DNA of 64,000 nt from Burkholderiales bacterium (GTDB lineage: Bacteria > Pseudomonadota > Gammaproteobacteria > Burkholderiales > JACQAP01), in NCBI GenBank assembly GCA_035548375.1, contig DASZTG010000021.1:138646-202645 (forward strand). Reading direction: 5' to 3'. Under the pieces are notes generated by a model. It was not told the DNA's origin. It did not search any database and saw only the letters and a list, made by a program, of their open reading frames with translations. The translations under genes and the position numbers were made by a program. This document shows, piece by piece, positions 1 to 49,766 of the stretch; position 1 is the first letter of the stretch; each line of letters opens with the position of its first letter.

Positions 1-501
1 CAGGCCGATCACCGCAGCTTTCGACGTGGAGTAGGGCGCGAAGTAGGGGCTGCCGTTCTTGCCGGCAATGGAGGCAAGGTTGATGATGCGGCCGTACTTC
101 TGCGCGATCATGACTGGGATCACCGCGCGACTGCACAGGTAGACGCCGTCGACGTTGATCGCCATGACCTTGCGCCACTCGTCGAGCGGGTATTCCCAGC
201 TACGGCGCACGTTGCCCGAGATGCCGGCGTTGTTGACGAGGATGTCGATGCGCCCGAGGTTCTTCTGCGCCGCAGTGGCCGCGGAATTCACCTGGGTTTC
301 GTTGGTCACGTCGACGACGGCGGTGTTGACCTTCCCCTTGCCGCGCAGCTTCATGGCGGCGTCTTCCAGCGCGCCGCGATCCATGTCCCACATCGAGACG
401 GCGGCGCCGCCTTCGAGGAATTTCTCGGTGATCGCGAGGCCCAGTCCGCGTGCCGCGCCGGTGACGATGGCCACGCGGCCCTTGAAGTCGATGTTGTTCA
501 T
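1..501 (-). CDS. Short-chain dehydrogenase/reductase (FabG-like), first 167 codons; 3' end lies beyond the left edge
   Basis: Reverse translation from ATG (complement of 499-501) gives MNNIDFKGRVAIVTGAARGLGLAI... It has the TGxxxGxG dinucleotide motif, NNAG, and the YSTSK (YxxxK) catalytic motif. Absent from the ORF track because there is no stop inside the window. Its start overlaps the stop of the upstream RraA gene (TGATG). Confidence 0.85.
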   Translation of the reverse strand, partial: MNNIDFKGRVAIVTGAARGLGLAITEKFLEGGAAVSMWDMDRGALEDAAMKLRGKGKVNTAVVDVTNETQVNSAATAAQKNLGRIDILVNNAGISGNVRRSWEYPLDEWRKVMAINVDGVYLCSRAVIPVMIAQKYGRIINLASIAGKNGSPYFAPYSTSKAAVIGL

Positions 502-1145
502 CAGAATTTCCCGAACTTGAGATAGGCCTCCTGCGGGTCCATGCCCTCGAGGATGGCTCGGCGCACCTTGCTCTCGGTTTGCAGCACCTCCTCGGTCTTG
601 CTCACCACTTGCTCCGCGATCTTGCCGGGAATGATGACGACACCGTCACGGTCGGCCAGCAGCCAGTCGCCGGTGCTGATTTTAACCTCGCCGATCGTCA
701 CCGGCTCGCCGAAGTGGTCCGGCACCCAGCGGCCGACGATGTCGGCCGGCGTGTTGAAGCTGCAGAACACCGGGAAGCCCAGCTTGAGGATGAAGTCCGT
801 GTCGCGGCAACCGCCGTCGACCACGTAACCGAGCACGCCCTTGTGGTGCAGCGTCTCGGCGGAAAGCTCGCCCATCAGCGCGACCATATGCGTATTCGGC
901 TGGCAGACCATGACCTTGCCCGAAGGCGCCTTTGACAACAGCCCCGTCCACTGCACCAGGGTGTCGTGCGCGTCGCGCGTCTGGTCGATGCGACCGCTGA
1001 CGGTGTACACCTCGCCGGCCAGTTTCCTGGTCGGATCCAGTGGCTTGATGGCGGGTGGCAGCACGCACTTGCCGTGACCCATGCCGCGCAGCACGTCGTG
1101 GACTGCTGCGGCGTAGCATTTTTCGAGACGCTTCGTTAAGTCCAT
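501..1145 (-). CDS. RraA-family protein (RraA / HMG-aldolase-like)
   Basis: Track ORF 501..1193. Internal ATG at 1145 (MDLTKRLEKCYAAAVHDVLRG...) is preceded by GGGAGTGAG. GYVVDGGCRDTD and the overall length are typical of the RraA/demethylmenaquinone-methyltransferase-like fold. Confidence 0.75.
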   Translation of the reverse strand: MDLTKRLEKCYAAAVHDVLRGMGHGKCVLPPAIKPLDPTRKLAGEVYTVSGRIDQTRDAHDTLVQWTGLLSKAPSGKVMVCQPNTHMVALMGELSAETLHHKGVLGYVVDGGCRDTDFILKLGFPVFCSFNTPADIVGRWVPDHFGEPVTIGEVKISTGDWLLADRDGVVIIPGKIAEQVVSKTEEVLQTESKVRRAILEGMDPQEAYLKFGKF

Positions 1146-1190
1146 ATTTTTGTTCTCACTCCCGGGATAAGACCTACGACCTAAGGACAC

Positions 1191-1231
1191 CACCCAACGC
1201 AGAGGCGCAGAGGACGCAAAGGACGCAAAGC
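1191..1231. repeat. Cassette 1: solo arm of the CRCRRAGRR inverted-repeat family
   Basis: cacccaacgcagaggcgcagaggacgcaaaggacgcaaagc has the same terminus (CACCCAACGCA) and 9-nt units as the arms at 16985, 19362, 33399 and 35656. No partner arm was found up to 2168. Confidence 0.7.
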
Positions 1232-1456
1232 AAAATCATTAGGAATGGTACAGAGATTGGCGACGAGTTGAATTACAGCCACGAGTGGTGACAAAAGAAG
1301 AACGGGCTTATGCTATATGGGTACTGTAAATTTGGCAGTGGGTAATACGGCCGTTAAATGGCCGTAGGAGCGCAGCATTGTGAATAGAGGGCAGTCATTT
1401 GTCAGGTTAGCGGCTGGTGATACCTTAATTTCGACGTCTATGTAGGCTTTGTTGTT

Positions 1457-4331: not shown

Positions 4332-5129
4332 ATGAGGAGATTGGAAGGTCAAACCGCGCTTGTGACCGGTGCCGGTCGCGGCATCGGCGCGGCGATGGCA
4401 CTCGCGTATGCGCGCGAGGGTGCACACGTGGCCGTGACGGACCTGAGCGAAGCCGGCATCAATGGGGTGGCGGAACAGGTCCGGGCGCTCGGCGTGCAGG
4501 CGGAAGCTTTCGTCGTCGACGTGCGCGAGCCCGCGCAAACGGCGGCGATGGTCGAGCGCGTGGCGAAGCGATTCGGCCGGCTGGACCACATGGTCAACAA
4601 CGCCGGCGTCATCCGCGTGAAATCTTTCCTGAATACGACACCGGAAGATTGGGATTTCATCCAGTCAGTCAACGTGCGCGGACTGTTCTTTGCGTTGCAA
4701 GCGGGTGCACGGCAGATGCTGAAGCAATCGCCGCTCGCCGAGGGCCGGCCCAACGGCAAGATCCTGAACCTGGCATCCATCGCCGGGCGTGGCGGCCGGC
4801 CGATGCTGGCAGCCTATGCGGCGAGCAAGGCCACCGTGATCAATATCACGCAGACCGCGGCGCTGGAGTTCGCGCCGCGCGTGGCCGTCAACGCGATCTG
4901 CCCTGGTCCGGTGGATACGGACATGTGGAAGCTGATCGACGACGAGTGGACGAAGATCGAAGGCAAGCCGCCCGGCGCGGTCTGGAAGGAACGCACGCGC
5001 GCGATTCCTATGGGCCGTCCCGAGAAACCCGACGACCTGACCGGCATGGCGGTTTTCCTCGCCAGCAAGGAAGCCGACTACATCACCGGGCAGTCGTTCA
5101 ACATCGACGGCGGGCTGGTGCCGATGTGA
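4332..5129 (+). CDS. SDR-family oxidoreductase
   Basis: ATG 4332 inside track ORF 4233..5129. TGAGRGIG, NNAG and YAASK motifs. Confidence 0.85.
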   Translation: MRRLEGQTALVTGAGRGIGAAMALAYAREGAHVAVTDLSEAGINGVAEQVRALGVQAEAFVVDVREPAQTAAMVERVAKRFGRLDHMVNNAGVIRVKSFLNTTPEDWDFIQSVNVRGLFFALQAGARQMLKQSPLAEGRPNGKILNLASIAGRGGRPMLAAYAASKATVINITQTAALEFAPRVAVNAICPGPVDTDMWKLIDDEWTKIEGKPPGAVWKERTRAIPMGRPEKPDDLTGMAVFLASKEADYITGQSFNIDGGLVPM

Positions 5130-5144: not shown

Positions 5145-5909
5145 CTATTCCAGTCCGGGCCGCCAATCGTCCCCGGGATTCCACTGGAACGACGTACGCG
5201 CAGTGACGCCCGGCTTCAAGCGGCGATCCGGCCCATAGTCCGCGAGCGGGTGGAAAAAGAGCGGCGCGTCCGCCAGCAAGGAGTCCAGCCGATTCCGCAA
5301 AGCGTCCAGCATAGCCACTCGTGCCGGCTCGTCGATCAGCCCGATGCCGTGCGCGATGAACGGCGGCAGCACGTCGAAGCCGACGTAGCGTAGTACCCCG
5401 TTCTGGAGCGGCCACAGGATGCGGTGGATGTCGCCGTCCATGCCGTCGGGCGCGAATACGCTTTCCCTTGCGCCGGTCGTGACGGATACCAGTGCCCGCC
5501 GTCCCTTCAACAGGCCGTCCTCGAATCTTTGCGTGGGCGTGTAGGCGAAGCCGTAGGTCATCACGCGGTCGATCCAGCCCTTCAGGATCGCCGGGGGGCC
5601 AAACCACCACATCGGGAATTGCAGTATGAGCACCTCGCACCAGCGCAATTTTTCCTGCTCTTCTTCGATTTGAGGCACGTAACCAGAACCGGCCAGGGCG
5701 TGCTTCATCTCTGCGCGATACTCGTAGACGTCGGGATTTGCCCTTTCCGTGTAATCGGCGGGCCCGGCCGAGGGATCGAATCGTTGGGCGTAGAGGTCCG
5801 AGACCCGGACCTGATGACCGCGTGCATTCAGATGATCCATCGCCGTCTGCAGCAGCGCGCCGTTGAAGGATTTCGGCTCCGGGTGGGCAAAAACGAATAG
5901 TATTTTCAT
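5145..5909 (-). CDS. NAD(P)H dehydrogenase (quinone), Flavodoxin_2/NQO1-like
   Basis: ATG at 5909 (MKILFVFAHPEPKSFNGAL...). LILQFPMWWFGPPAILKGWIDRV is the family hallmark. The upstream 75 codons of the track ORF are discarded. Confidence 0.8.
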   Translation of the reverse strand: MKILFVFAHPEPKSFNGALLQTAMDHLNARGHQVRVSDLYAQRFDPSAGPADYTERANPDVYEYRAEMKHALAGSGYVPQIEEEQEKLRWCEVLILQFPMWWFGPPAILKGWIDRVMTYGFAYTPTQRFEDGLLKGRRALVSVTTGARESVFAPDGMDGDIHRILWPLQNGVLRYVGFDVLPPFIAHGIGLIDEPARVAMLDALRNRLDSLLADAPLFFHPLADYGPDRRLKPGVTARTSFQWNPGDDWRPGLE

Positions 5910-5991
5910 GTTGTCGAAGGGGTTATTGACCGGTGATCCGGTCGCGCGAGGAACGCAATATGCCATGCTCGAAATTATCCGGCGCCGCTCG

Positions 5992-7632
5992 ATGCGAGGA
6001 AGGCCTGTGAATCGGAACCTGCACGTCGCCGCTTTCGTCTTCGTGGTCGCGATATTTTCCGCGGCCGCGTGGGCCGACGAGCATGCCGCGCATGCTCTGG
6101 GCAAGGTGGATTTCCCCGCGAGTTGCGCAAGCACGGTGCAAGTAGACTTCGATCGCGCGGTGGCCTTGCTGCATCACATGACGTATCCGCAGGCGCGCGA
6201 AGCGTTCGCGAAAATCGCGGCCGCCGATCCGGGTTGCGCGATGGCGCACTGGGGCATCGCCATGACGCTGTTCCAGCCATTGTGGCCGACGCGCCCCGAC
6301 CTGGATACGCGCGCGCGAGGATGGGATGAGGTGCAGAAGGCCATCGCGCTGAAGCCACCGACAGAGCGGGAACGCCTGTTCATCGCCGCGGCTGCCGCAT
6401 TTTTCCAGGAGCCGGCGTCGAACGACTATTGGCTACGAATTCGTCGCTGGGAGCAGGCCCAGAAACAAGCTGCCGACGCCTACCCGGATGACGACGAGGC
6501 CCTGGCGTTCTACGCGCTTGCGCATCTTGCAGTTGCGCCTGCGGATGCGACTGCGCGCCGCTATTCCGATGAATCCGCCGCCATGCTGATGCGCGTCTAT
6601 CGCCACAATCCCGATCATCCCGGCGCCATGCATTACCTCGTCCACGCGAACGATGTGCCCGGGCGGGAACGCGAATCGCTGGAGATCACGCGCAAGTACG
6701 AATCGGTCGCACCGCGCAATCCGCACGCGCTGCACATGCCCACCCACATTTACACGCGCCTCGGTGACTGGGACGGGGTGATTCGCGGGAACCTGCTTGC
6801 CGCGGATGCGGCGCTGGAATTTCCCGCGGGCGATCGCGGCCAATACGTCTGGGACGAGTTTCCGCATGCAATCGAATACCTGGTCTACGCCGATCTCCAG
6901 AAGGGCCGGGATACCGCTGCCGCGGCGCAAGTGCAGCGTTTGCGTGAAACGGCGAATCTCGAGCCCACTTTCAAGACGGCCTTCCACCAGGCATCGACGC
7001 AGGCGCGATATGCGCTGGAGCAACGCGACTGGGTCGCGGCGGCGGCGATCGTGCCGCGCGAACCCGCTTCCGTCGATTGGGATCGCTTTGCCTGGCCCGA
7101 AGCGATCTCCCGCTTCGCGCGCGGACTGGGCGCGGCTCACCTCGGCGACCTCGATGAAGCGCGGGCGCAGCGCGCGGCACTCCAGCGCCTCGAGGATGCA
7201 ATGGCCAAGGCGGGCGAGGACTTGTTCGCGCGCAACATTCGCATGCTCGGCCTCGAGCTGGCAGCCTGGCGCGCGCACATGGAAGGGAAATACGAATCCA
7301 GCATCGGGTTGATGATCGAGGCGTCCGAACTCGAGGCTTCCACGCCCAAGCATGCCGTGACGCCCGGCCCGACCTTGCCGGCCGACGAACAGCTGGGGGA
7401 CATGCTCATGGAGCAGGAGCAGGCGCCCGCCGCGCTCGTCGCCTACCAGCGCGCGCTCGAACACTACCCTCGCCGGTTCAACAGCCTGCTTGGCGCGGCC
7501 CGCGCGGCACGCACGGTTCGCAACGACGAAGCCGCGCGTGCCTTTTACCAGGAACTTCTTGCGGTGGCGGGCGACGGCGAGCGCAAGCCGGCCGTGCTGG
7601 AAGCCAGAAGCTTTCTGGCCCAAAAACGCTGA
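5992..7632 (+). CDS. Exported helical-repeat (TPR-like) protein, unknown function
   Basis: ATG 5992 gives MRGRPVNRNLHVAAFVFVVAIFSAAAWA, a signal-like N-terminus. The protein is long and Ala/Leu-rich with repeated helical character. The start is uncertain; 5965 is an alternative. Confidence 0.55.
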   Translation: MRGRPVNRNLHVAAFVFVVAIFSAAAWADEHAAHALGKVDFPASCASTVQVDFDRAVALLHHMTYPQAREAFAKIAAADPGCAMAHWGIAMTLFQPLWPTRPDLDTRARGWDEVQKAIALKPPTERERLFIAAAAAFFQEPASNDYWLRIRRWEQAQKQAADAYPDDDEALAFYALAHLAVAPADATARRYSDESAAMLMRVYRHNPDHPGAMHYLVHANDVPGRERESLEITRKYESVAPRNPHALHMPTHIYTRLGDWDGVIRGNLLAADAALEFPAGDRGQYVWDEFPHAIEYLVYADLQKGRDTAAAAQVQRLRETANLEPTFKTAFHQASTQARYALEQRDWVAAAAIVPREPASVDWDRFAWPEAISRFARGLGAAHLGDLDEARAQRAALQRLEDAMAKAGEDLFARNIRMLGLELAAWRAHMEGKYESSIGLMIEASELEASTPKHAVTPGPTLPADEQLGDMLMEQEQAPAALVAYQRALEHYPRRFNSLLGAARAARTVRNDEAARAFYQELLAVAGDGERKPAVLEARSFLAQKR

Positions 7633-14832: not shown

Positions 14833-15714
14833 TCAGATTGCAACAGGCGGTACCTGCCGCATGCCCACCAGGTGATTGATGACCAGCGCGCCGATGACGA
14901 TGCCGCCCCCGAGCAGGGCGGCGTCGCCGGGGCGCTCGCCTACGAACATCCACGTCGACACCACGCCGAAGATGATCTCGAGGATGGAGATCAGCGCGAC
15001 TTCCGCCGACGACAGGTGCGGCACCGCAAGCATGTAGAGCAGCAGGCCGACGCCAAGCTGTACCGCGCCCATCGTCGCCAGCAGGCCGAGGTCGGCCGGT
15101 GAGACGGCCAGCGGAAGCGCGAACGGCAGGGTCGTCGCCATCGAGAAAATGCCGGCCAGCAGGATGGAGGGAATGAAATCCAGCGTGGCCCGGTGCTTTC
15201 TCAGCAGCACCACGTTGAAGGCGAAGGCGATGGGGATGCACAGTGCGATCAGGTTGCCGGTTCCGCCGCCGCTGGAGATGGACTCATAGAACATCAGCAC
15301 GACGCCGGCGAATGCCGCGGCCATTGCGAACCAGGTACGCGACGCGACGGGTTCCCCCAGGAAAATCCGACCCGTCAGCGCGGCGGCGAAAGGCGAGATG
15401 CTGCCCAGTACCAGCGTGTTGGCGATCGTGGTGCGCGAAATCGCCAGGATGAAACACAGGAACATCAAGGCGAACATCGCGCCGGAGATCACGCCCGGCC
15501 AACCCATGGCGCGAATGCGCTCGAACAGGCGCCCGCGGTGCTGGAGCGCGAGCACGACCAGCAGGAATACCGTCAGGAACAGCGAGCGCCAGAACGTGAT
15601 TTTCCAACCGTCGTGGACCTCCATGTTCCGCACCAGCACGCCTGCGCTGGCCCAGCACATGCACGCACCCACGAGGAGGACGACGCCTTTGCGGTGTTGC
15701 GCGGATGCTGTCAT
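14833..15714 (-). CDS. EamA/DMT-family transporter
   Basis: 293 aa, 10 TM-like segments in two repeats. Confidence 0.8.
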   Translation of the reverse strand: MTASAQHRKGVVLLVGACMCWASAGVLVRNMEVHDGWKITFWRSLFLTVFLLVVLALQHRGRLFERIRAMGWPGVISGAMFALMFLCFILAISRTTIANTLVLGSISPFAAALTGRIFLGEPVASRTWFAMAAAFAGVVLMFYESISSGGGTGNLIALCIPIAFAFNVVLLRKHRATLDFIPSILLAGIFSMATTLPFALPLAVSPADLGLLATMGAVQLGVGLLLYMLAVPHLSSAEVALISILEIIFGVVSTWMFVGERPGDAALLGGGIVIGALVINHLVGMRQVPPVAI

Positions 15715-15737
15715 CGACTAGAGCTCTCGATCATAAA

Positions 15738-15920
15738 TCTCATCACGAAGACACGAAGGGCACGAAGAAATGCAAATGCGACAATGTTGAAAATTGTTTT
15801 CATTCCAGGTGAGCAATCGGACATCGCAACGTCTTGAGTAGACCTACGGTGATTTCGTGCGAGTTCTTTTTTTTGACCTTCTTCGTGTTTCTTTGTGTCC
15901 TTCGTGTCTTTGTGATGAGA
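15738..15920. repeat. Cassette 2: inverted-repeat cassette, CACGAAG flavour
   Basis: The left arm is tctcatcacgaagacacgaagggcacgaagaaa. The reverse complement of the right arm (15877-15920) begins tctcatcacaaagacacgaaggacacaaagaaa, matching at 30/33. The spacer is 106 bp. Confidence 0.85.
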
Positions 15921-15921
15921 A

Positions 15922-16977
15922 TTAGATGGCTGTGGGTATTGCGACGCCGAGTTTTTCGCTCCACGGCTGCAGCGCTGGCAGGATGCCGGGATACAGTTCC
16001 ACGCCGTCTTTCAATTGCTTCTCGCGTCGGCGCAATCCGGATTCGCCGGGCAGGCGTACGCGATCGAAGCCCGGGCGCGGCGGGGTGTTGCGGCATGCGT
16101 TCGCGATCCATTCGGTCTGGCGCACGAAGTCGTCCTCGCCGCCGAACAGCCGCGGATCGAACACCTGGACGTAGACGTTCGCGGCCCAGCCTTCATTCGG
16201 ATCTGCGCGCCCGTGACCGGACAGGCCCTGCGTCAATGCTTCGACCAGCAGGCCGAGCGAGTAACCCTTGTGGCCGTGGTCGAGTCCGCCGATCGGCAGC
16301 AGTCCGCCCTTGGGCTCATTGAACACGACGGCGGGATCGTCGGACGGATTGCCGTGGCCGTCGAGCACCCACTGGCCCGGCAGCTTGCGCTTCTCGCGAT
16401 TCAGGCGGCCGGTGAGGCCGTGCGTCGTGATCGACATGGACACGTCGATGATGACCGGGTCGCCCTTCGTCGGCCACGCCGCGGCGATCGGATTCGGCGT
16501 GTGCGTGCCGGTGCCCTTGCCGCCGTGGGGTACCACGCCGCCGACTTCCGGACCGGACGAGATCAGCATCACCATCATGCCCTGGTCCGTGACTTTCTTG
16601 AGGTAGGCCGCGAGGCAGGCGATGTGATGGCTGCGACGGATCGTCACCGTGCAGGTGCCAAGTGTCTTTGCGCGTTCCAGCGCGAGGTCGATCGCCGTTG
16701 CGGTCAGCCACACGCCGGGAAGACGCATCCCGTCCCAGGTCACCGCCGCGGGAAAATCCGCGATCACGCGCGGACTGCCCGACTTCGCCATGCCGCCTTT
16801 TTCGAGGTCGTTCAGATAGGGCGCCAGCAACTGCAGGCCATGTGTCGTGTGGCCGAGCAGGTCGCCCTCCACGAGAACCTCCGCGACGACTTTGGATTTG
16901 TCATGATCGAGCCCGGCCTTGTCGAGCAGGGCCGTCGCGTAGGTGATCAGTTCGGATGATTTGTATTTATCGGACAT
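15922..16977 (-). CDS. Ldh_2-family (malate/L-lactate/sulfolactate type) NAD(P)H-dependent dehydrogenase
   Basis: 351 aa. GDLLGHTTHGL and the overall layout fit the family. Confidence 0.8.
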   Translation of the reverse strand: MSDKYKSSELITYATALLDKAGLDHDKSKVVAEVLVEGDLLGHTTHGLQLLAPYLNDLEKGGMAKSGSPRVIADFPAAVTWDGMRLPGVWLTATAIDLALERAKTLGTCTVTIRRSHHIACLAAYLKKVTDQGMMVMLISSGPEVGGVVPHGGKGTGTHTPNPIAAAWPTKGDPVIIDVSMSITTHGLTGRLNREKRKLPGQWVLDGHGNPSDDPAVVFNEPKGGLLPIGGLDHGHKGYSLGLLVEALTQGLSGHGRADPNEGWAANVYVQVFDPRLFGGEDDFVRQTEWIANACRNTPPRPGFDRVRLPGESGLRRREKQLKDGVELYPGILPALQPWSEKLGVAIPTAI

Positions 16978-16984
16978 AGGTCAA

Positions 16985-17172
16985 AACCCAACGCAGAGAC
17001 GCAGAGGAAAAAGAGTTCGCAGAGGAAACGGAATGAACTAGAGGGGTATGGATTATGACCTGGATATCATCGCGCCTTCCCTCTTGAACATCGTCGAGCG
17101 TTCTGACTGGATCCTCCAACTGCTATTACTCTGTGTTCCTCCGTTATTCTCTGCGCCTCTGCGTTGGGTGTA
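16985..17172. repeat. Cassette 3: inverted-repeat cassette, CGCAGAG flavour
   Basis: The left arm is aacccaacgcagagacgcagaggaaaaag... The reverse complement of the right arm (17129-17172) is tacacccaacgcagaggcgcagagaataacgg... The first roughly 25 nt match and the inner parts diverge. Confidence 0.8.
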
Positions 17173-17190
17173 ATCAGTAGGCAGCAATCC

Positions 17191-18315
17191 TTAGATCATG
17201 ATGATCTGCCGCACCGTATGGCCGGAGGCGAGGCGATCGAAGCCGACGTTGATGTCTTCGAGCTTGATGTGGTCGCTCATGAGCTTGTTCACCGGCAGCA
17301 TGCCGCGGCGATACAGGTCGATGTAGCGCGGGATATCGCGCGACGCGACGCAGGAGCCGACGTAGCTGCCCTTGATGGTGCGTTCCTCCGCGACCATGTT
17401 CACGTGCTGCAGCGGCCAGCGGTGGTCGGGGTGGGGCAGGCCGGCGGAAACCGTTGTGCCGCCGCGGCGCGTGATGCGATAGGCGAGTTCCATGGCCTGT
17501 ACGGAGCCGGCCATTTCCAGCGCGAAGTGCACGCCGCCGCCGGTCAGGTCCTTCACCTTCTGGATCGCGTCGGGATCCTTCGCATTCACGGTGTCGGTTG
17601 CGCCCAGGTCTTTCGCCAGCTTGAGCTTGTCGTCGTGCAAGTCGATGGCGACGATTTGCTGCGCGCCGGCGACGATGGCGCCGAGCAATGAATTCAGTCC
17701 GACACCGCCAAGGCCAAGCACGGCGACTTTGGCACCGGGAAATACCTGCGCGGTGTTGAACACCGCACCGACGCCGGTGAGCACCGCGCAGCCGAACAGC
17801 GCGGCCTCGTCGAACGGCAGCGACTTGTCGATCCTGACCAGCGAGCCGCGATTGACCACGCAGTATTCCGCGAACGCGGAGACGCCGACATGGTGATAGA
17901 CCTGCGCGCCGTTCTGGCTCAGGCGCATGCCGCCGTTGAGCAGCTTGCCCGCGCCGTTGGCCTGCTGGCCGGGCTCGCAGCGGCCAGGATGGCCTTCGAC
18001 GCAGGGCGCGCACTGGCCGCAACTCGGCGCGAATACCAGCGCAACATGGTCGCCGACCTTGAGGTCGTTGATGCCGGCACCGATTTCCTCGACGATGCCG
18101 GACGCTTCATGCCCGAGCACCATCGGCATCTGGCGCGGGCGATCTCCATTGACCGTGGACAGGTCGGAATGGCACAGGCTCGCCGCCTTGACCTTGACCA
18201 GCACTTCGCGCTGGCCGGGCTTGTCGAGCTCGACTTCCTCTATGACCATGGGCTTGCTGTCCGCGTACGGCTGCGGCAGGTTCATCTGGCGAATGACTGC
18301 GGCTTTGATTTTCAT
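17191..18315 (-). CDS. Zn-dependent alcohol dehydrogenase (class III-like)
   Basis: GHEASGIVEEIG, structural-Zn CGQCAPCVEGHPGRC, and the GLGGVG NAD motif. Confidence 0.9.
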   Translation of the reverse strand: MKIKAAVIRQMNLPQPYADSKPMVIEEVELDKPGQREVLVKVKAASLCHSDLSTVNGDRPRQMPMVLGHEASGIVEEIGAGINDLKVGDHVALVFAPSCGQCAPCVEGHPGRCEPGQQANGAGKLLNGGMRLSQNGAQVYHHVGVSAFAEYCVVNRGSLVRIDKSLPFDEAALFGCAVLTGVGAVFNTAQVFPGAKVAVLGLGGVGLNSLLGAIVAGAQQIVAIDLHDDKLKLAKDLGATDTVNAKDPDAIQKVKDLTGGGVHFALEMAGSVQAMELAYRITRRGGTTVSAGLPHPDHRWPLQHVNMVAEERTIKGSYVGSCVASRDIPRYIDLYRRGMLPVNKLMSDHIKLEDINVGFDRLASGHTVRQIIMI

Positions 18316-18331
18316 TGCTGCTCCACGTCTG

Positions 18332-18500
18332 AATCGGAACCACGGAGAACACGGAGTAAACGGAGAGAAAAGAGATGGGGAAAGAATGGTGTGGCGCGCT
18401 CTTCAAAATCGATCGCCTGCACGGATCGATTCCTGTGCAACAACTCCTTCCGCTTTATGTTTTCTCCGTGCCCTCCGTGATCTCCGTGGTTCCGGATTGG
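18332..18500. repeat. Cassette 4: inverted-repeat cassette, CACGGAG flavour
   Basis: The left arm is aatcggaaccacggagaacacggagtaaacggagagaaaag. The reverse complement of the right arm (18460-18500) is ccaatccggaaccacggagatcacggagggcacggagaaaa. Confidence 0.85.
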
Positions 18501-18510
18501 AATTTTCGTC

Positions 18511-19260
18511 TTAGTAAGTCGCGCGACCGCCGGAGAGGTCGAACGTCGAAGCGGTCGTGAACGAGCAATCCTCGGTGCAAGCCCAGCACACGGTTGCCGC
18601 GATTTCCTCGACCAGGCCGAATCGGCCCATCGGGATTTTCGAGAGCATGTAGTCGATGTGGCTTTGCGCGACCTGGTCGAAGATCGGCGTCTTCACCGCG
18701 GCTGGTGTCACGCAATTCACGGTGATGTTGTTCTTCGCGAGTTCCTTGCCGAGCGACTTGGTCAGGCCGATCACGGCGGCCTTCGAGGAGCTGTACGCCG
18801 ATGCGTTCGGATTGCCTTCCTTGCCGGCGACCGAGGCGATGTTGACGATGCGCCCGTAATTGTTCTTGACCATGTGCGGCACGACGGTGCGGCAGGTGTA
18901 GAACGTGCCGTGCAGGTTGATGTCGTGCACGCGTATCCATTCGTCCACCGGGTAGTCGGCGACGGTCGCGTTCTTGCCGGCGACTCCCGCGGAATTCACC
19001 AGCGCGTCGACCTTGCCGAATGCGGCCACCGTGGATTTGAACGCGGCCTCGACCTGGTCGATCTTGCTGACATCGACCTTCGCCGTATGCACCTTGCCGG
19101 CGCCGAGTGATTTGGCCGCCTCCGCCATGCTCTGCTCGTTGAAGTCCCAGATGGCGACGTTCGCGCCGGATTGTGCGAGGCGCTTCGAGATGGCCAGTCC
19201 GATGCCGGACGCGCCGCCGGTGACGATGGCGCTGCGGCCCTTCATGTCGAGTTGGTTCAT
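18511..19260 (-). CDS. SDR-family oxidoreductase (3-oxoacyl-ACP reductase-like)
   Basis: TGGASGIG, NSAG and YSSSK motifs. Confidence 0.85.
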   Translation of the reverse strand: MNQLDMKGRSAIVTGGASGIGLAISKRLAQSGANVAIWDFNEQSMAEAAKSLGAGKVHTAKVDVSKIDQVEAAFKSTVAAFGKVDALVNSAGVAGKNATVADYPVDEWIRVHDINLHGTFYTCRTVVPHMVKNNYGRIVNIASVAGKEGNPNASAYSSSKAAVIGLTKSLGKELAKNNITVNCVTPAAVKTPIFDQVAQSHIDYMLSKIPMGRFGLVEEIAATVCWACTEDCSFTTASTFDLSGGRATY

Positions 19261-19361
19261 TGCACTACTCCTTATTGTTTTGTTCGATCGCCTGCCGACG
19301 GGGGGTGCCGGGCGCGGAAGACCGCCATTTTAATTCAAAACGGATTTTTGACGACCGAGGC

Positions 19362-19557
19362 GTACACCCAACGCAAAGGCGCAAAGGACGCGAAGAACGC
19401 AAAGGAAATCAATGGAATTGAAGTGGCGGCAAGCCGATCTTGCCGCTGCGAAATTTGCCAATGTTGTGGGCTTCATTCGAAGCGATTCGTTTCCCCTCCT
19501 TGACTTCGCGTTTCTTTGCGAACTCTGCGTCCTTTGCGCCTTTGCGTTGAGGTGTAT
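19362..19557. repeat. Cassette 5: inverted-repeat cassette, CGCAAAG flavour
   Basis: The left arm is gtacacccaacgcaaaggcgcaaaggacgcgaagaacgcaaaggaaa. The reverse complement of the right arm (19504-19557) is atacacctcaacgcaaaggcgcaaaggacgcagagttcgcaaagaaacgcgaag. Confidence 0.85.
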
Positions 19558-19559
19558 CC

Positions 19560-20714
19560 CTAGACAGCCTGTCCAGCGGCGTAGCCGGAGGCCCAGGCCC
19601 ACTGGAAGTTGTAACCGCCCAGGTGCCCGGTGACGTCCACGACCTCGCCGATGAAATACAGCCCCGGTTGCTTGCGGGCTTCCATCGTTTTCGAAGACAG
19701 TTCGCGGGTGTCGACGCCGCCGAGCGTGACTTCGGCCTTCTTGTATCCAACCGTACCGCTGGGCCGCACACGCCAGTCGTGCAGGCGCGCGGCGACTTCG
19801 CGCAGTCGTGTGGCGTCGATGCGCTTGACCGGCTGGTTTTCGAAATGCGCTTCCACCCAGCGCTGGGCGAACCGCTGCGGCAGCAATTCACCGAGGACGT
19901 TGGCGAGCAGTTTTTCCGACGCCTGCATGCTCGCCAGAACTTCTCTTGCATCCCCATCCGGCAGCAAGTCGATCGACAAATCGACGCCGGGACGCCAGTA
20001 GGAAGAAATCTGCAGGATGGCGGGCCCGGACAACCCGCGATGCATGACGAGAAGATTTTCGCGGAAGCTCGCGCCGTTGCAACTGACGATTGCATCGATC
20101 GAGATTCCGGAGAGCTCGCCGAACCGCGCCAGGGTTTCCGGTGCAAATGTGAGGCCGACGAGCGCGGGTCGCAGTTCCGTGACCGCGAGGCCGAACTGCC
20201 CGGCGACGCGATAGCCGAAAGGGCTTGCGCCGATCTGCGGGATCGACAATCCGCCGCTTGCGATGACCAGCGACGCACATTCGAAAACCCCGCGATCGGA
20301 AATGACGTGGAAACCGTTTTGTTTCTCGATCGAGGCGATCGTCGCAGGCATGCACCACTGCACGCCTGCACCGTCGCATTCGGCCCTCAGCATGTCGATG
20401 ACCTGCTGCGCCGAATCGTCGCAGAACAACTGGCCCAGTTTCTTTTCATGCCAGGCGATGCCGTGCTTCTCCACGAGCGCGATGAAGTCGCGCGGCGTAT
20501 ACCGCGCCAGCGCGGAGCGACAGAAATCGGGATTCCCGGAAAGATAGTTCTCGGGTCGTGCGTCTATGTTCGTGAAATTGCAGCGGCCGCCACCGGAGAT
20601 GCGGATTTTCTCGCCGAGCTTTGCCGCGTGATCGAGCAACACCACGCGACGGCCGCGCTTGCCGGCCTCGATCGCGCACATCATGCCGGCGGCCCCTGCG
20701 CCGACTATGAGCAC
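19560..20714 (-). CDS. HI0933/BaiN-family NAD(FAD)-utilising flavoprotein
   Basis: GTG start. VGAGAAGMMCA FAD motif and the family signature ISGGGRCNFTN. Confidence 0.8.
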   Translation of the reverse strand: MLIVGAGAAGMMCAIEAGKRGRRVVLLDHAAKLGEKIRISGGGRCNFTNIDARPENYLSGNPDFCRSALARYTPRDFIALVEKHGIAWHEKKLGQLFCDDSAQQVIDMLRAECDGAGVQWCMPATIASIEKQNGFHVISDRGVFECASLVIASGGLSIPQIGASPFGYRVAGQFGLAVTELRPALVGLTFAPETLARFGELSGISIDAIVSCNGASFRENLLVMHRGLSGPAILQISSYWRPGVDLSIDLLPDGDAREVLASMQASEKLLANVLGELLPQRFAQRWVEAHFENQPVKRIDATRLREVAARLHDWRVRPSGTVGYKKAEVTLGGVDTRELSSKTMEARKQPGLYFIGEVVDVTGHLGGYNFQWAWASGYAAGQAV

Positions 20715-20736
20715 GTCGGCGCGGACTGCGCCGCTC

Positions 20737-21312
20737 TTACCTGAAGAAATAGACCAACGCCAGCAGGATGACCACGCCCCCGATGACCCAGACGTAGGTT
20801 GGAAAGCCGGATCTTGCGGGGGGCGCGATGACGTTTTCCGCGGTTGCCGATGATTCTGTCGACGCAGGCGCCGCGGCGACCACGACGCTGTTGAAGCGGG
20901 CGAAGAAATCGTCGCTCATTTTCTTCGCGACGCCGTCGATCAGGCGCGAGCCGATCTGCGCGAGCTTGCCACCCACGCTCGCGTTGACCTTGTAGGAAAG
21001 CACGGTGCCGCCAGCTTCCGGCGCGAGTGAAACCTGGGCACCGCCCTTGCCGAAACCAGCCGCGCCGCCCGAGCCTTCGAACGCGAGGGAATACGAATTC
21101 GGCGGATTCAAATCGGCCAGCGTGAGCTTGCCGTTGAACTTCGCCTTGACCGGGCCGACCGCGGCCGTCATGGCCACCTTGTATTCGGTGTCCGACACCT
21201 TCTCGATGCTCTCGCAGCCCGGAATGCAGGCCTTGAGCGTTTCGGGGTCGTTGAGCGCCTCCCAGACGCGCTGCTGCGAAAGGGGGATGCGCTGCTCGCC
21301 GCTCATTTCCAT
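20737..21312 (-). CDS. coxG: CoxG-family SRPBCC protein with C-terminal membrane anchor
   Basis: ATG 21312 (MEMSGEQRIPLSQQRVWEALNDPETLKACIPGCE...), typical of the CoxG N-terminus. The C-terminal segment YVWVIGGVVILLALVYFF is hydrophobic. Confidence 0.75.
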   Translation of the reverse strand: MEMSGEQRIPLSQQRVWEALNDPETLKACIPGCESIEKVSDTEYKVAMTAAVGPVKAKFNGKLTLADLNPPNSYSLAFEGSGGAAGFGKGGAQVSLAPEAGGTVLSYKVNASVGGKLAQIGSRLIDGVAKKMSDDFFARFNSVVVAAAPASTESSATAENVIAPPARSGFPTYVWVIGGVVILLALVYFFR

Positions 21313-21451
21313 GTTGCCGCTTCTCCTGTTGGTTGCATTTGCGGCCCGATGCACCGTCTTGGGCCGCGCCACTGGATTATGCGCCCGCTTTGGTGGCATT
21401 CAAGCGCGAACTTCGCATCGATCGCGGTCATAACAGGAATTAGCGGTCGTC

Positions 21452-32230: not shown

Positions 32231-33391
32231 TCACGCGGCGATGGCGGACGGTCGAGAATGGCGCAGCGAGCGCGCGAGATCGGTCAGGCTGTCGATGTTG
32301 TGGGCCGGCAGGAAAGCGTCGACATGCGGCAACATCAGTTTCACGCCCGCGGCTTTCGGCTCGAAATCCTCGAAGCGCAGCAGCGGATTCAGCCAGATCA
32401 ACTGGTGGCACGACTTGTGAAGGCGTTCGATCTGCTTGCCGAGGTCGTCGCCAGGATCGCGGTCCAGCCCGTCGCTGATCAGCATGACCACGGCGTTCTG
32501 GCCGAGCACGCGGCGCGACCAGCGCTGGTTGAATTCCTTCAGGGTGGCGCCGATGCGAGTGCCGCCCGACCAGTCCTCGACCAGTCCCGATACCGCGTTG
32601 AGCGCGACATCGACGTCGCGATGCCGCAGTTGCCGCGTGATGTTGGTGAGTCGCGTGCCGAACACGAAGCTCTGCACGCGGTCGCGATCGTTCGTGATCG
32701 CGTGCAGGAAGTGCAGGAACATGCGCGAATAACGGCTCATCGAGCCGGAGATGTCGCACAGCACGACGAGCGGCGGATGCAGCTTGCGCACGGAACGCCG
32801 GCGCAGCGGAATGACGTCGGCGTTGCCCCGCAGGCTTGCACGCAAGGTCGCACGCAGGTCGACGTGCCTTCCCCGGGCGTCCGGATGCAATCGCCGCGTC
32901 GCCACCTCGGGGATTGGCAGCCGCAGTCCGGCGATGAGCTTCTTCGCCTCGGCGAGTTCTTCCGACGTCATGGTTTCGAAGTCCTTGCGCTGCAATTTTT
33001 CCAGGTCGGACGCGCTCAACAGGACCTCGGGTTCCTCGTCCTGGTAGCCGGCCTTCATCGGCATTTTCCGCGTGAGGCCGAGCGCCTCCGCGATGCGGTT
33101 CGGTGCCTTGTTCGGATCGGTTTTCATGCCGGTGGCGGACGGCAGGGCGGGCATCGCCTGTTCCAGCAGGTGGCGCTCGCGCCAGAACAGTTTGAACGCC
33201 TGGTCGAATAGTTCGAAATGTTCGCGACGCGAGAGGAATACCGACGCCAGCGTCCAGTAAAAATCCTCGCGTCGCTCGATGCCGGCGATCTGCAGCGCGC
33301 GCAGGCCGTCGAGCACGCGATCGGGACCGACGGTAATGCCGGCGCGGCGCAGCGCGCGGGCAAAATGGGCGATGTTTTCAGCGAGCTTCAT
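32231..33391 (-). CDS. coxE: vWA-domain protein, CoxE-like maturation factor
   Basis: MKLAENIAHFARALRRAGI... is a CoxE-type N-terminus. MIDAS motif VVLCDISGSMSRY. Confidence 0.85.
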   Translation of the reverse strand: MKLAENIAHFARALRRAGITVGPDRVLDGLRALQIAGIERREDFYWTLASVFLSRREHFELFDQAFKLFWRERHLLEQAMPALPSATGMKTDPNKAPNRIAEALGLTRKMPMKAGYQDEEPEVLLSASDLEKLQRKDFETMTSEELAEAKKLIAGLRLPIPEVATRRLHPDARGRHVDLRATLRASLRGNADVIPLRRRSVRKLHPPLVVLCDISGSMSRYSRMFLHFLHAITNDRDRVQSFVFGTRLTNITRQLRHRDVDVALNAVSGLVEDWSGGTRIGATLKEFNQRWSRRVLGQNAVVMLISDGLDRDPGDDLGKQIERLHKSCHQLIWLNPLLRFEDFEPKAAGVKLMLPHVDAFLPAHNIDSLTDLARSLRHSRPSAIAA

Positions 33392-33831
33392 CTAGTGCCT
33401 ACACCCGACGCAAAGGCGCAAAGAACGCAAAGGTCGCGAAGAAGGACAACAAGTTGGAGATTGTTAACGACACGCTTGATAGATTGACGCAGAACGGCAG
33501 AGTTGAAGTTGATCAGTAGTCCAAGCTTCTTATCGGAAAGGCGCAGATAACTCAGGAGCTGGGCTTCATGAACTGGAAGAACATGCTCGATCGATTTGAC
33601 TTCGACGATCAGCATGTCGTTTACCAGTATATCCAGACGCAAACTACCTTCCAGCCGCTGACCCTTGTAGATAACCTCGACTTCCGCTTGCCGGGTTACC
33701 GCGAGCCCTCTCGATTTCAGTTCGATCGCAAGAGCTTCTTCGTAGAGGAATTCCAGAAGACCGGGGCCAAGCTCTTTGTGCACTTCGATCGCCGCGCCGA
33801 TAACTTCATGGGATAGGGCATTTTCATCCAT
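33388..33831 (-). CDS. GxxExxY protein (PD-(D/E)XK nuclease-fold, PDDEXK_3-like)
   Basis: GLLEFLY is the GxxExxY motif. RLDILVND...IVEVKS is a D...ExK core. The last roughly 20 codons (LLRDLCVLCAFASGVGTR) are the translated repeat arm. Its stop overlaps the coxE start (ATGA). Confidence 0.85.
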   Translation of the reverse strand: MDENALSHEVIGAAIEVHKELGPGLLEFLYEEALAIELKSRGLAVTRQAEVEVIYKGQRLEGSLRLDILVNDMLIVEVKSIEHVLPVHEAQLLSYLRLSDKKLGLLINFNSAVLRQSIKRVVNNLQLVVLLRDLCVLCAFASGVGTR

Positions 33832-33932
33832 CCGCGTTCCCCCAAAGCTCCGATGGCACTGGCGCGCCCCGTCGTCTCGCTGGCTTTCCTTTGCGACCTT
33901 TGCGTTCTTTGCGCCTTTGCGTTGGGTGTAGA
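33399..33932. mobile_element. Cassette 6: full-length inverted-repeat cassette carrying a GxxExxY ORF
   Basis: The left arm is ctacacccgacgcaaaggcgcaaagaacgcaaaggtcgcgaagaagg. The reverse complement of the right arm (33885-33932) is ctacacccaacgcaaaggcgcaaagaacgcaaaggtcgcaaaggaaag, about 44/47 identical. The arms bracket a 439-bp lower-GC insert between coxD and coxE. Confidence 0.8.
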
Positions 33933-33941
33933 CGCCAGGTA

Positions 33942-34862
33942 CTAACGATTGGCGATTTCTTCGAGTATTCTTGCCGCTTGAGTTCCGCGGACGGCGGCGA
34001 TGTCGTCCTGGTACTTGAGCAGGACGCCGAGGGTGTCGTCGACGACGCCGGGGTCCAGGGACCGGCGATCCAGTTCCAGCAGCGCACGGGCCCAGTCGAT
34101 CGTCTCGGCCACCCCGGGTTTCTTGAAGAGCTCGGAGGCGCGCAGCTTCTGCACGAAGGCGACGATTTCGCCGGAGAGTTTTTCCGCGATGCCGGGAACC
34201 TTGCGGCGGACGATCTCGAGTTCGGCACTCGCCGCCGGATAGTCCACCCAGTGATAGAGGCAGCGGCGCTTGACCGCGTCGTGAATTTCACGCGTCCGAT
34301 TGGACGTGATGACGACGATGGGCGGGCGCTGCGCCTCGATCGTGCCGATCTCGGGAATGGTGACCTGGAAGTCGGCCAGCACTTCCAGCAGATAGGCCTC
34401 GAACGGCTCGTCGGTGCGATCGAGCTCGTCGATCAGCAGCACCGGCGCCAGGCCGTCGGCCGAATCCATTGCCTGCAGCAACGGGCGGCGAATCAGGAAG
34501 CGTTCGTCGAAGATGTCCTTTTCGAGTTTTTCCCGTGCTCCCGCGCCTGCGGCTTCGGCCATGCGGATCTCGATCATCTGCCGCTGGTAGTTCCACTCAT
34601 ACACCGCCGAGGCGACGTCGAGTCCCTCGTAGCACTGCAGGCGGATCAGGCGACGGCCGAGGACCTGCGCCAGAACCTTGGCGATTTCGGTCTTGCCGAC
34701 GCCCGCTTCGCCCTCGAGGAACAAGGGCCGCTGCATGCGCAACGCCAGGAACACGGCGGTTGCGAGCGATCGTTCGGCGACATATTCGCCGGATGCAAGC
34801 AGCGCCAGCGTCGCGTCTATGGATTCCGGAACCTCACTTGCCAAGGGCCTGCTCCACGGCAC
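33942..34862 (-). CDS. coxD: MoxR-type AAA+ ATPase, CoxD-like
   Basis: Walker A GEAGVGKT and Walker B LLIDELDR. The start is uncertain (GTG 34862 or TTG 34845); both overlap the coxM 3' end. Confidence 0.85.
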   Translation of the reverse strand: MPWSRPLASEVPESIDATLALLASGEYVAERSLATAVFLALRMQRPLFLEGEAGVGKTEIAKVLAQVLGRRLIRLQCYEGLDVASAVYEWNYQRQMIEIRMAEAAGAGAREKLEKDIFDERFLIRRPLLQAMDSADGLAPVLLIDELDRTDEPFEAYLLEVLADFQVTIPEIGTIEAQRPPIVVITSNRTREIHDAVKRRCLYHWVDYPAASAELEIVRRKVPGIAEKLSGEIVAFVQKLRASELFKKPGVAETIDWARALLELDRRSLDPGVVDDTLGVLLKYQDDIAAVRGTQAARILEEIANR

Positions 34863-35634
34863 GCTTCGCCATGACGGTGATCAGGTGCGCGCGGTATTCG
34901 GCACTGGCATGGATGTCCGAATTGAGATCCGCGGACGACACCTTCACCGCGGCGACGGCATCGGCGGTGAAGGATTTCGCGAGCCCTTTCTCCATGTCGG
35001 CGACACGAAATACGCTCGGACCTGCACCGGTCACGGCAACGCGAATGCCGCCTGACGCTTCGGCGACGAATACGCCGACCATCGCATAACGCGAAGCCGG
35101 GTTCTTGAATTTCGCGTATCCGGCGCGCTTCGGCGCCGGGAAGGAAATCGACGTAATGATCTCGCCGGGTTCGAGCGCCGTTTCGTACATGCCGGTGAAG
35201 AACTGGTCCGCAGGGATCTTGCGCTTGTTCGTGGAAATCGTCGCACCCAGGCCGACGACGGCTGCGGGATAGTCCGCCGCCGGATCGTTGTTGGCGACCG
35301 ACCCACCCATCGTGCCCATGTTGCGAACCATCGGGTCGCCGATGCTGGCCGCGAGATGCGCAAGCGCGGGAATGGCCTTCGCGACTTCCTTCGAGGCGGC
35401 GACGGTCGCGTGGGTCGTCATCGCGCCGATGGTCACGGTATTGCCCTCGACCTTGATGCCGCGCAATTCGCCGATGCCGCCGAGGTCGATGACGTCGGCG
35501 GGTGCCGCGAGGCGCATCTTCATCGCGGCAATCAGTGTCTGGCCGCCCGCGAGGATCTTTGCGTCGGACGATGCCGACAGCTTTGCCGTCGCGTCCGCGA
35601 CGCTCGAGGCCTTGTGGTAGTTGAATGCGTGCAT
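34834..35634 (-). CDS. coxM: FAD-binding medium subunit (CoxM-like), second copy
   Basis: AGGAGG then ATG 35634. LAGGQTLIAAMK and GTMGGSVANNDPAADYP. Confidence 0.9.
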   Translation of the reverse strand: MHAFNYHKASSVADATAKLSASSDAKILAGGQTLIAAMKMRLAAPADVIDLGGIGELRGIKVEGNTVTIGAMTTHATVAASKEVAKAIPALAHLAASIGDPMVRNMGTMGGSVANNDPAADYPAAVVGLGATISTNKRKIPADQFFTGMYETALEPGEIITSISFPAPKRAGYAKFKNPASRYAMVGVFVAEASGGIRVAVTGAGPSVFRVADMEKGLAKSFTADAVAAVKVSSADLNSDIHASAEYRAHLITVMAKRAVEQALGK

Positions 35635-35655
35635 GTTCTGAATTCCTCCTGCTAT

Positions 35656-35845
35656 TTACACCCAACGCAAAGGCGCAAAGGACGCAAAGAAAGACGAAAA
35701 ACATTCTGGATAAATGAGCCCAAGCATGGCTTGCCATGCCGGGAAGTCATCCTTGGATTGCGAGTGCCACCGAATGGATTCGTTTTCTGATTCATTCTTG
35801 CTTGGCGTTTCCTTTGCGTTCTTTGCGCCTTTGCGTTGGACGTGG
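35656..35845. repeat. Cassette 7: inverted-repeat cassette, CGCAAAG flavour, between coxS and coxM
   Basis: The left arm is ttacacccaacgcaaaggcgcaaaggacgcaaagaaagacg. The reverse complement of the right arm (35805-35845) is ccacgtccaacgcaaaggcgcaaagaacgcaaaggaaacgc. The spacer is 103 bp. Confidence 0.85.
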
Positions 35846-35855
35846 GGTTTCGGCG

Positions 35856-36320
35856 TCAGGCCTTGGCGCCGGCCTGCACGGCCTTGACGATGTTGTGATA
35901 CCCCGTGCAGCGACAGAGATTGCCGTCGAGCTCGGCGCGGATGGTTTCCTCGTCCGGGTTCGGGTGGCGCTTGACCAGGTCGATCGCGCTCATGACCATG
36001 CCCGGCGTGCAGTAGCCGCATTGCAGCCCGTGATGGTCGCGGAACGCGGCCTGCATCGGATGCATGCTGCCGTCGGATTTGGCGAGTCCTTCGATCGTCA
36101 GGACGGTGGCGCCCTGGGCCTGGACGGCGAGCATGTTGCAACACTTCACCGCAACGCCGTTCATGTGGATGGTACAGGCGCCGCACTGGGCGGTATCGCA
36201 GCCGATGTGCGTGCCGGTGAGCCGCAGCGTGTCGCGAATGAAATCGACCAGCAGGGTGCGCGGTTCCACGTCTGCATTGACGGGTTTTCCGTTCACGGTC
36301 ATGGAGAGCCGGACTGGCAT
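35856..36320 (-). CDS. coxS: [2Fe-2S] small subunit (CoxS-like), second copy
   Basis: ATG 36320 ([14 protein letters not shown]...). [16 protein letters not shown] and CRCTGYHNI. The upstream 42 codons of the track ORF are dropped. Confidence 0.9.
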
Positions 36321-36473
36321 GGGGTTTTCCCTTCTTGGGCAGGTAGCGCCGGAACGAGCGGCGAGCCGCAATCGTAGACGGCCAGGGCGGCGGCGGCAAC
36401 CGGTACGCCGTTTTCGGACGTGGCGTAAAATCCTGAGGGTTCGCATCCAATACTAAAGACGGGACATAACCCC

Positions 36474-49543: not shown

Positions 49544-49766
49544 TCCAGGCCGGGCATCGCCGAATCGAAGTTCGCCTCCGCTCTGGAGAAACCAGAGCAG
49601 GACCAGGTTGTAATTCCGGCACGTCCTGCGGACTTAACCTTGTCGTTGCACGAAAAGGTTAGCCTTCATTGCAACTTGGTCTTGCTAGAGCGGCAAATTG
49701 TAGCTTTCACGTCACGCTGCTTCGCCGCATGAGTGTCCGCTGTAACTGATTCCTGCTCTGATGAAA

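Follow-up and report, generated by a model that had tools for sequence, protein, structure and literature searches.

In the repetitive extragenic palindromic (REP) and bacterial interspersed mosaic element (BIME) repeats of bacteria, many copies lack an open reading frame (ORF) and a few flank the gene of a small enzyme, the REP-associated tyrosine transposase (RAYT), a Y1 HUH protein of IS200/IS605-like type. The REP unit is an imperfect palindrome of 20–40 nt with a GTAG-type head, and REP elements are found at the 3′ ends of genes and within operons, where they are tolerated since they do not terminate transcription. In REPINs, short intergenic repeats are paired in inverted orientation and can form hairpins (PMC3116915). 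Correia elements (also Correia repeat enclosed elements, CREE, or nemis) and enterobacterial repetitive intergenic consensus (ERIC) sequences measure 100–190 bp, carry terminal inverted repeats (TIRs), lie next to or between genes and are co-transcribed with them (PMC2649163, PMC10969869); in Correia elements the RNA stem is a target that RNase III binds or cuts, and this alters the expression of neighbouring genes (PMC2649163). From Coxiella and Leptospira, 23S rRNA intervening sequences have been reported whose loop contains an ORF (PMC4990558). Here we describe inverted-repeat cassettes in a 64,000-nt stretch of the genome of a Burkholderiales bacterium (GenBank assembly GCA_035548375.1, contig DASZTG010000021.1, positions 138,646–202,645; hereafter the window, whose coordinates are used below). 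An earlier reading of its letters (the original prediction) had proposed that four consecutive intergenic gaps of one minus-strand gene string are each filled by such a cassette.

It is near certain that these four cassettes (E1–E4) belong to one family of elements with arms of a common design, and it is likely that the elements are selfish in the manner of REPINs or MITEs (miniature inverted-repeat transposable elements). On balance we lean towards the reading that the four are ORF-less, non-autonomous members of a widespread palindromic intergenic family, related to cassettes that enclose the gene of a GxxExxY nuclease. The family is apparently undescribed. The searchable literature yielded no description of the elements, nor any treatment of GxxExxY (PDDEXK_3, PF13366, TIGR04256) beyond its listing as a family whose function is unknown, although curators may know the association; a 2024 review of prokaryotic MITEs contained nothing similar.

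In kind, the cassettes come nearest to the REPIN/RAYT system, with another enzyme superfamily, another repeat design and a spread across phyla. The likeness consists of inverted intergenic repeats, an ORF-less majority, a minority that flank an enzyme gene and sites within operons. The flanked gene here, however, encodes a 125-aa PD-(D/E)XK nuclease of the GxxExxY family rather than a HUH tyrosine transposase (no Y1 transposase was found among the 29 window proteins scanned), and the arms are arrays of degenerate heptamers with ends TT[C/A/T]AC rather than self-palindromic GTAG units. The loops are long and unique, and one design recurs across many phyla, in contrast to the species-specific REP sequences. 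Membership of the REP/BIME/REPIN-RAYT group was rejected on the enzyme and the structure of the unit, though inverted intergenic pairing is present. Correia elements resemble the cassettes in size, TIRs and placement, and the RNA-level effect suggested below is modelled on them; they differ in having a conserved core, a TA target duplication, integration host factor (IHF) and promoter motifs and no known enzyme gene, whereas the cassettes have unique loops, no detected duplication and promoter-like sites at frequencies not above chance. As in the 23S rRNA intervening sequences, a long inverted-repeat stem can bracket a small selfish ORF within a host transcript, but the cassettes lie in mRNA gaps rather than rRNA helices and the ORF is of a different family.

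Anatomy of the four cassettes

An inverted-repeat search of the window recovered one cassette in each of the four gaps, as had been predicted. E1 (15734–15924) lies between ldh2 and eamA, with 37-nt arms (15734–15770 and 15888–15924; 89% complementary) that consist of CACGAAG/CACAAAG arrays around a unique spacer of ∼110 nt. E2 (16986–17172), between adh and ldh2, has CGCAGAG arrays in 26-nt arms (16986–17011 and 17144–17169; 88% complementary), a predicted fold that extends the pairing further, and the ends ACCCAACG...CGTTGGGT. CACGGAG arrays form the 35-nt arms of E3 (18332–18500; arms 18335–18369 and 18460–18494; 86% complementary), which lies between sdr and adh and ends in CGGAACC...GGTTCCG, and CGCAAAG/CGCGAAG arrays form the 39-nt arms of E4 (19363–19552; arms 19369–19407 and 19511–19549; 87% complementary), which lies between the flavoprotein gene and sdr and has the ends TACACCCAACG...CGTTGAGGTGTA. 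Checked against the ORFs, the cassettes do fill their gaps: the distance from the upstream stop codon is ∼1 nt for E1, 18 for E2, 10–16 for E3 and 2–7 for E4, and the distance to the downstream start codon is 23, 8, 16–19 and 101 nt, respectively. The ∼100 nt on the sdr side of E4 are native upstream region of sdr, partly conserved in one relative. This stretch separates E4 from sdr, and a single operon is no more than a possible reading of the gene string. The lower GC content claimed for the spacers was likewise recovered (0.42–0.51 in the four cassettes vs 0.625 for the window).

The arms had been described as reverse complements of each other. Their inverted pairing was reproduced and is continuous from the end through 26–39 nt, but their sequence is not arbitrary: they are arrays of 3–5 degenerate heptamers, C-R-C-N-R-A-G, at 8–9 nt spacing, of a design shared by many phyla (see below). 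The main heptamer is CACGAAG in E1, CGCAGAG in E2, CACGGAG in E3 and CGCAAAG in E4, and the partner arm carries the complementary variant; a single cassette keeps to one variant throughout both arms, and neighbouring cassettes carry different ones. Being direct arrays that are not self-complementary, the arms are distinct from REP palindromes, in agreement with the original prediction. With up to two mismatches allowed, the pattern CRCRRAGRCRCRRAGRRCRCRRAG gave 10 matches in the window; 100 shuffles put the expectation at 0.02. This upholds the claim of a density far above chance. Such density does not recur inside genes, as arrays of at least three units were all intergenic and no match fell in coding sequence of the window. 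All six complete window cassettes (E1–E4, with E5 and E6 described below) lie between co-directional minus-strand genes and start 1–18 nt past a stop codon.

Minus-strand RNA of the cassettes was predicted to fold into long terminal stems, with minimum free energies of −62 to −104 kcal/mol and z-scores of −5 to −9 relative to mononucleotide shuffles. The promoter/terminator scan found no U-tract terminator in any cassette, as anticipated, and promoter-like sites were not above chance. A single terminator-like match fell inside a cassette: within the spacer of E4, the non-transcribed (+) strand has a stem of 5 pairs. Counts were below the shuffle expectation. Intrinsic (Rho-independent) terminators, which combine a short GC-rich stem with a U tract, were ruled out because the U tract is absent. 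Among the Rfam 15 covariance models, only a tRNA was matched in the window at the gathering threshold, and nothing credible was found in 15600–19700 at E ≤ 5.

The host gene string (14833–20714, minus strand) was identified by profile matches. It comprises genes for an HI0933-like flavoprotein (19560–20714), an SDR (sdr, 18511–19260), a zinc alcohol dehydrogenase (Zn-ADH; adh, 17191–18315), an Ldh_2 dehydrogenase (ldh2, 15922–16977) and an EamA transporter (eamA, 14833–15714), all on the minus strand.

A cassette with a GxxExxY nuclease gene

The original prediction had also stated that no transposase lies nearby. That statement needs amendment, as a sibling cassette 14 kb away, E5 (33400–33930), holds the gene of a GxxExxY PD-(D/E)XK nuclease. 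E5 lies in the gap between a coxD-like AAA gene and a coxE-like VWA gene, and its CGCAAAG-type arms (33400–33445 and 33886–33930) enclose the nuclease gene; E4 and E6 have arms of this type too (TACACCCRACGCAAAGGCGCAAAG...), near-identical at the three loci. E6 (35657–35845), between coxS-like and coxM-like genes, has CGCAAAG-type arms that are 94% complementary and a unique spacer of 116 nt. The ends of E2, E4, E5 and E6 read ACCCAAC...GTTGGGT, while those of E1 and E3 do not. NCBI contig CAZHPT010000092.1 ends at window position ∼35837, inside the right arm of E6, where the window sequence runs on; a contig end at this place is expected for a dispersed repeat.

The ORF within E5 (33388–33831, minus strand) encodes 147 aa, with 33457–33831 as the part of family length. 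It matched TIGR04256 over profile positions 2–116 of 116 (E 5e-43; 146.1 bits vs a cut-off of 35) and PF13366 (PDDEXK_3; E 3e-41; 140.8 bits vs a cut-off of 22). The C-terminal 22 aa (33388–33456) are an in-frame read-through of the 3′ arm of E5, giving the tail LQLVVLLRDLCVLCAFASGVGTR, and many database homologues of 130–150 aa probably carry arm-encoded tails of this kind. Residues G24, E27, Y30, D67, E77 and K79, which make up the GxxExxY motif and the D...ExK catalytic residues, are conserved among 44 homologues. The AlphaFold (AF2) model, with a pLDDT of 90.7, has a PD-(D/E)XK core of alpha-beta-beta-beta-alpha-beta fold, for which the nearest solved folds were Cas4 SSO0001, lambda exonuclease and RecE, all weak matches (E 5e-3, TM 0.56–0.59). 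A sequence search against solved structures gave no match for the protein, and PADLOC returned only a weak Cas4 match. The family counts 32,742 clusters at 50% identity (E ≤ 1e-3). Tandem two-domain GxxExxY proteins of ∼240–295 aa head the search of representatives, and such natural fusions are suggestive of a dimeric enzyme.

Association of arms and nuclease genes across bacteria

Eighty metagenomic GxxExxY loci were picked by protein patterns only, with no DNA pattern. At 56 of the 80 genes the flanking inverted-repeat score exceeded that of every shuffled control, and these 56 repeats were nearly all arrays of CGCAGAG, CACAGAG, CGCCGAG, CACGGAG or CGCAAAG. Exact heptamer arrays stood on both sides of 49 of the 76 mutually unrelated GxxExxY genes with full flanks, on one side of 13 and on neither side of 14, as compared with arrays on both sides in 0 of 153 control placements at the same loci. 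The spacing in this protein-selected sample was 8 then 9 nt and the outer end TTCAC, TTAAC or TTTAC. Many GxxExxY genes sit on contigs of ∼1–2 kb. Loci selected by their arrays contained four GxxExxY genes, all abutting arrays, and GxxExxY was the sole recurrent small ORF beside arrays.

Scans with the arm pattern returned 117 stretches from IMG/VR contigs and at least 120 from GTDB species genomes, 80 of which were listed. Among the GTDB matches listed were Proteobacteria, Bacteroidota, Chloroflexota, Cyanobacteria, Planctomycetota, Verrucomicrobiota, Acidobacteriota, Desulfobacterota and others, with cultured carriers such as Thioalkalivibrio sulfidiphilus ALJ17, Thiorhodococcus minor DSM 11518, Chloroflexus islandicus isl-2 and Calothrix sp. 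NIES-4105. Hairpins built alike but lacking an ORF occurred in more than 12 phyla, and full hairpins from several phyla share ends. Several apparent 500-nt cassettes in IMG/VR were discarded as purine-rich coding repeats of phage genes. Array pairs in the scanned loci were inward-facing in 83 cases (≤190 nt) and outward-facing in five (≤200 nt), and the purine-rich arm was the 5′ one in 47 of 52 cassettes. Loop lengths were bimodal, either 0–200 nt or ∼370–600 nt (one of 785 nt) with a complete GxxExxY gene, and almost nothing lay between. Across the family, loops without the gene consist of 2–190 nt of unrelated sequence. A six-frame hidden Markov model (HMM) search of 135 short loops detected no GxxExxY remnant (best E 0.28). 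Short cassettes were present in several copies, loop included, in other genomes (three copies each in L118 and L298, two in opposite orientations in L127), and further loop-included copies were found in L107/L117 and L126/L234.

Gap occupancy in relatives

Relatives were ranked by the identity of their adh protein to that of the window; homologues of the window proteins are annotated as Burkholderiales or Betaproteobacteria. At 94% identity (L240), cassettes are present in the flavoprotein|sdr and sdr|adh gaps at the same post-stop offset as in the window. All units in both arms of these cassettes are of the CGCGGAG variant, and the spacers cannot be aligned with those of the window. At 92% (L241), the sdr-adh-ldh2-eamA string has gaps of 40, 117 and 43 nt with no cassette. 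Empty gaps of 40, 43 and 105 nt were also listed for L241. At 82% (L246), ldh2 and eamA overlap by 4 nt, and all seven of the other cluster gaps contain cassettes of other heptamer types. Between orthologous cassettes the heptamer variants thus switch in concert, in all units and both arms. An ortholog of E5 was found in a syntenic position of L330, in the same coxD|coxE gap, where the flanking proteins are 80–90% identical; the arms of the two are ∼95% identical, the coding sequence between them is visibly less conserved (proteins 77% identical), and for the inner non-coding DNA alignment fails.

Since occupancy varies among relatives, the cassettes are not conserved regulatory DNA. The proposal that they are insertions stood in part: it agrees with the empty gaps of the 92% relative and the gene overlap in the 82% relative, while the same-offset cassettes in the 94% relative and the orthologous E5 indicate that some copies are old. 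Some cassettes are accordingly long-term residents, in which the arms are under the strongest constraint.

Cassettes occur in only three segments of the window (1–1232, 14833–21399 and 32231–36446), parted by cassette-free blocks of ∼13.6 kb and ∼10.8 kb. In L246 and L241 the genes of these segments stand together in a single uninterrupted cluster (coxS-M-D-E-G, sdr, adh, ldh2, eamA, RraA, SDR). The first segment contains E7 (1191–1231), a solo left arm with two CGCAGAG and two CGCAAAG units that adjoins the start of an RraA-like gene; its partner arm was found neither beside its island nor beside the eamA stop codon. Because eamA occupies that place in relatives, E7 lies at the breakpoint of a rearrangement by which the ancestral cluster was split.

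Several further repeats were seen at these loci. At 3720–3790 of L246, seven tandem copies of CACCAAGGA lie within a CGCAAAG-type cassette, which indicates that the 9-nt unit can expand in the manner of a minisatellite. The adh|ldh2 gap of L240 (6150–6190) and L241 (6155–6195) contains a one-sided array of four CGTGAC units at 8–10 nt spacing; it is kept in these two relatives, which have no cassette there, whereas the window, in which E2 occupies this gap, has no such array. A small palindrome, GGATACCC-GACGTGCTACGCACGT-AGGGTATCC, is nested in or beside cassette arms in two gaps of L240 (∼4950–4990 and ∼7300–7350) and is another dispersed element of that genome. Lastly, a type I restriction-modification operon of L330 has a second PDDEXK_3 gene (5475–6032) inserted between its hsdR and hsdM genes, with ATCCGCAGATTGACGCAG as the inverted repeat on its flanks; this is one more intra-operon GxxExxY cassette.

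Maintenance, mobility and competing explanations

If RNA pairing maintained the arms, mismatches would be expected to be mostly G·U transitions in the sense RNA, which was not seen. For 52 gene-bearing cassettes the ratio of G·U to A·C mismatches was 82:86 (p = 0.82); the window copies gave 5:10 and the orthologous copies 8:11 (13:21 for these operon cassettes together). The conserved arm sequence, fixed heptamer register and fixed polarity point instead to sequence-specific recognition at the DNA level, resembling that of transposon ends, by which the arms would be kept. They may thus act as protein-recognition ends comparable to TIRs and be maintained as DNA, and the short cassettes could be non-autonomous partners of the GxxExxY cassettes, as REPINs are to RAYT genes. 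The nuclease, probably a dimer, would recognise and process the arms in duplex, hairpin or cruciform form, and the outcome might be transposition or break-and-repair copying between copies; the concerted switching of heptamers across both arms could be a trace of such a copying mechanism. Mobility finds support in the multicopy loops, the arms common to E4, E5 and E6, the contig end in E6, the short contigs on which many GxxExxY genes sit and the differences in occupancy. That the GxxExxY nuclease mobilises the cassettes we advance tentatively, as a claim somewhat short of probable. The same caution applies to the wider proposal that GxxExxY genes and heptamer hairpins constitute an undescribed pan-bacterial selfish class, a “nuclease in a hairpin” accompanied by ORF-less satellites in their thousands, which would colonise operon gaps and be copied or maintained by a minimal PD-(D/E)XK enzyme rather than by a DDE or HUH transposase; we hold it possible without giving it even chances.

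The cassettes could persist between co-directional genes because a stem without a U tract does not terminate transcription. In the transcript, a stem of 30–45 bp would probably be an RNase III site or a barrier to 3′ exonucleases, as in Correia and REP elements, and its processing would uncouple the stability of the neighbouring cistrons.

Several observations weigh against a mobile, nuclease-driven family. E5 appears to be a stable resident rather than a recently mobile copy, because it is orthologous in L330. Neither a transposition event nor a clean pair of empty and filled alleles was recovered among the relatives, in which the gap flanks are too diverged to align, and a direct repeat indicative of target-site duplication adjoined none of the six complete copies. 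The spacers of the five short window cassettes are mutually unrelated by BLAST and have no GxxExxY remnant, so these copies look neither like the products of one master nor like deletion derivatives. No cassette was found in the other 52 kb of the window or in 7.8 kb upstream of it, where random transposition predicts otherwise. The similarity of GxxExxY proteins barely tracks heptamer type, and proteins 84% identical can have different arm variants; since the arm variant does not follow protein identity, no co-specificity of enzyme and ends is shown. An effect of the stems on RNase III cleavage or RNA stability, finally, is suggested by analogy.

Part of this evidence would suit hairpins that are immobile and selected by the host for mRNA processing or stability, with GxxExxY genes lodging or homing into their loops. 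The six complete copies stand between co-directional genes 1–18 nt past a stop codon, the same gaps are filled in diverged relatives (two of them at the same offset at 94% adh identity), the predicted stems are strong, and the bimodal loops fit the discrete insertion of a gene. We nevertheless consider this explanation unlikely, if worth keeping in view, since the sense transcript has no bias of G·U over A·C, the primary sequence and heptamer register of the arms are kept across phyla beyond what pairing requires, one close relative has no cassette in any of the four gaps and in another the genes overlap at one of them, and loop-included hairpins are multicopy in other genomes. Those same-loop copies, together with the near-identical arms of E4, E5 and E6 at three loci and the common register, end sequence and polarity in unrelated phyla, also make it improbable that the cassettes arose locally, by tandem 9-nt expansion and palindrome formation through template switching with no dispersal. 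Such a process could account for the seven-unit 9-nt expansion inside the L246 cassette, for the use of one heptamer variant per cassette with different ones in neighbours, and for concerted variant switching between orthologous cassettes.

Ordinary MITEs, as internally deleted copies of an insertion sequence with a DDE transposase elsewhere in the genome, would share the TIRs, the length of 160–190 bp, the intergenic location and the contig break at one copy. This origin is quite improbable, given that no target-site duplication was found at the six copies, that no gene other than GxxExxY has been seen between arms of this kind and that the arm design is common to many phyla, unlike the TIRs of particular insertion sequences. 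The window spacers also show no relation among themselves or to the GxxExxY cassette, although shared interiors occur in other genomes. An integron-like array with the inverted repeats as attC sites is largely refuted and may be given very little weight, for structure, gene-order conservation and loop content all disagree with it. Each of the same-strand genes is indeed followed by an imperfect palindrome, four window copies (E2, E4, E5 and E6) have AAC...GTT-type ends, with ACCCAAC...GTTGGGT fitting RYYYAAC/GTTRRRY, and the phyla found resemble those generally known to carry integrons. Gene order, however, is kept in relatives with gaps of 40–43 nt or overlaps, which argues against independent cassettes; pairing of the arms is continuous, without an unpaired spacer or extrahelical bases; E1 and E3 have no core sites, and the family-wide end TT[C/A/T]AC places AAC in another register; loops can hold a whole gene; and an integrase is absent among the 29 window proteins scanned.

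The occurrence of GxxExxY genes by rule in a conserved hairpin architecture offers a testable role for a very large protein family, and the same architecture exists in huge numbers without the gene. It also explains the recurrent “gap-filling” intergenic DNA of many environmental bacteria, one cause of contig breaks in metagenome assemblies, and low-complexity tails (e.g. ...LCVLCAF...) that appear spuriously on proteins. Should the nuclease mobilise the hairpins, this would constitute a new enzymatic route to REP- or MITE-like repeats; if the hairpins are RNA-processing sites, they would influence operon expression widely and in a way so far unrecognised.

Other features of the window

The low-GC stretch that follows E7 (within 1191–2168) contains a 185-aa ORF on the plus strand (1457–2014) with no match in Pfam, NCBIfam or PADLOC. 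A 473-nt gap between minus-strand genes contains, at 49580–49773, two separate small hairpins, GCTCTGG...CCAGAGC and CTGCTCTGA...TCAGAGCAG, of another repeat type than the heptamer cassettes.

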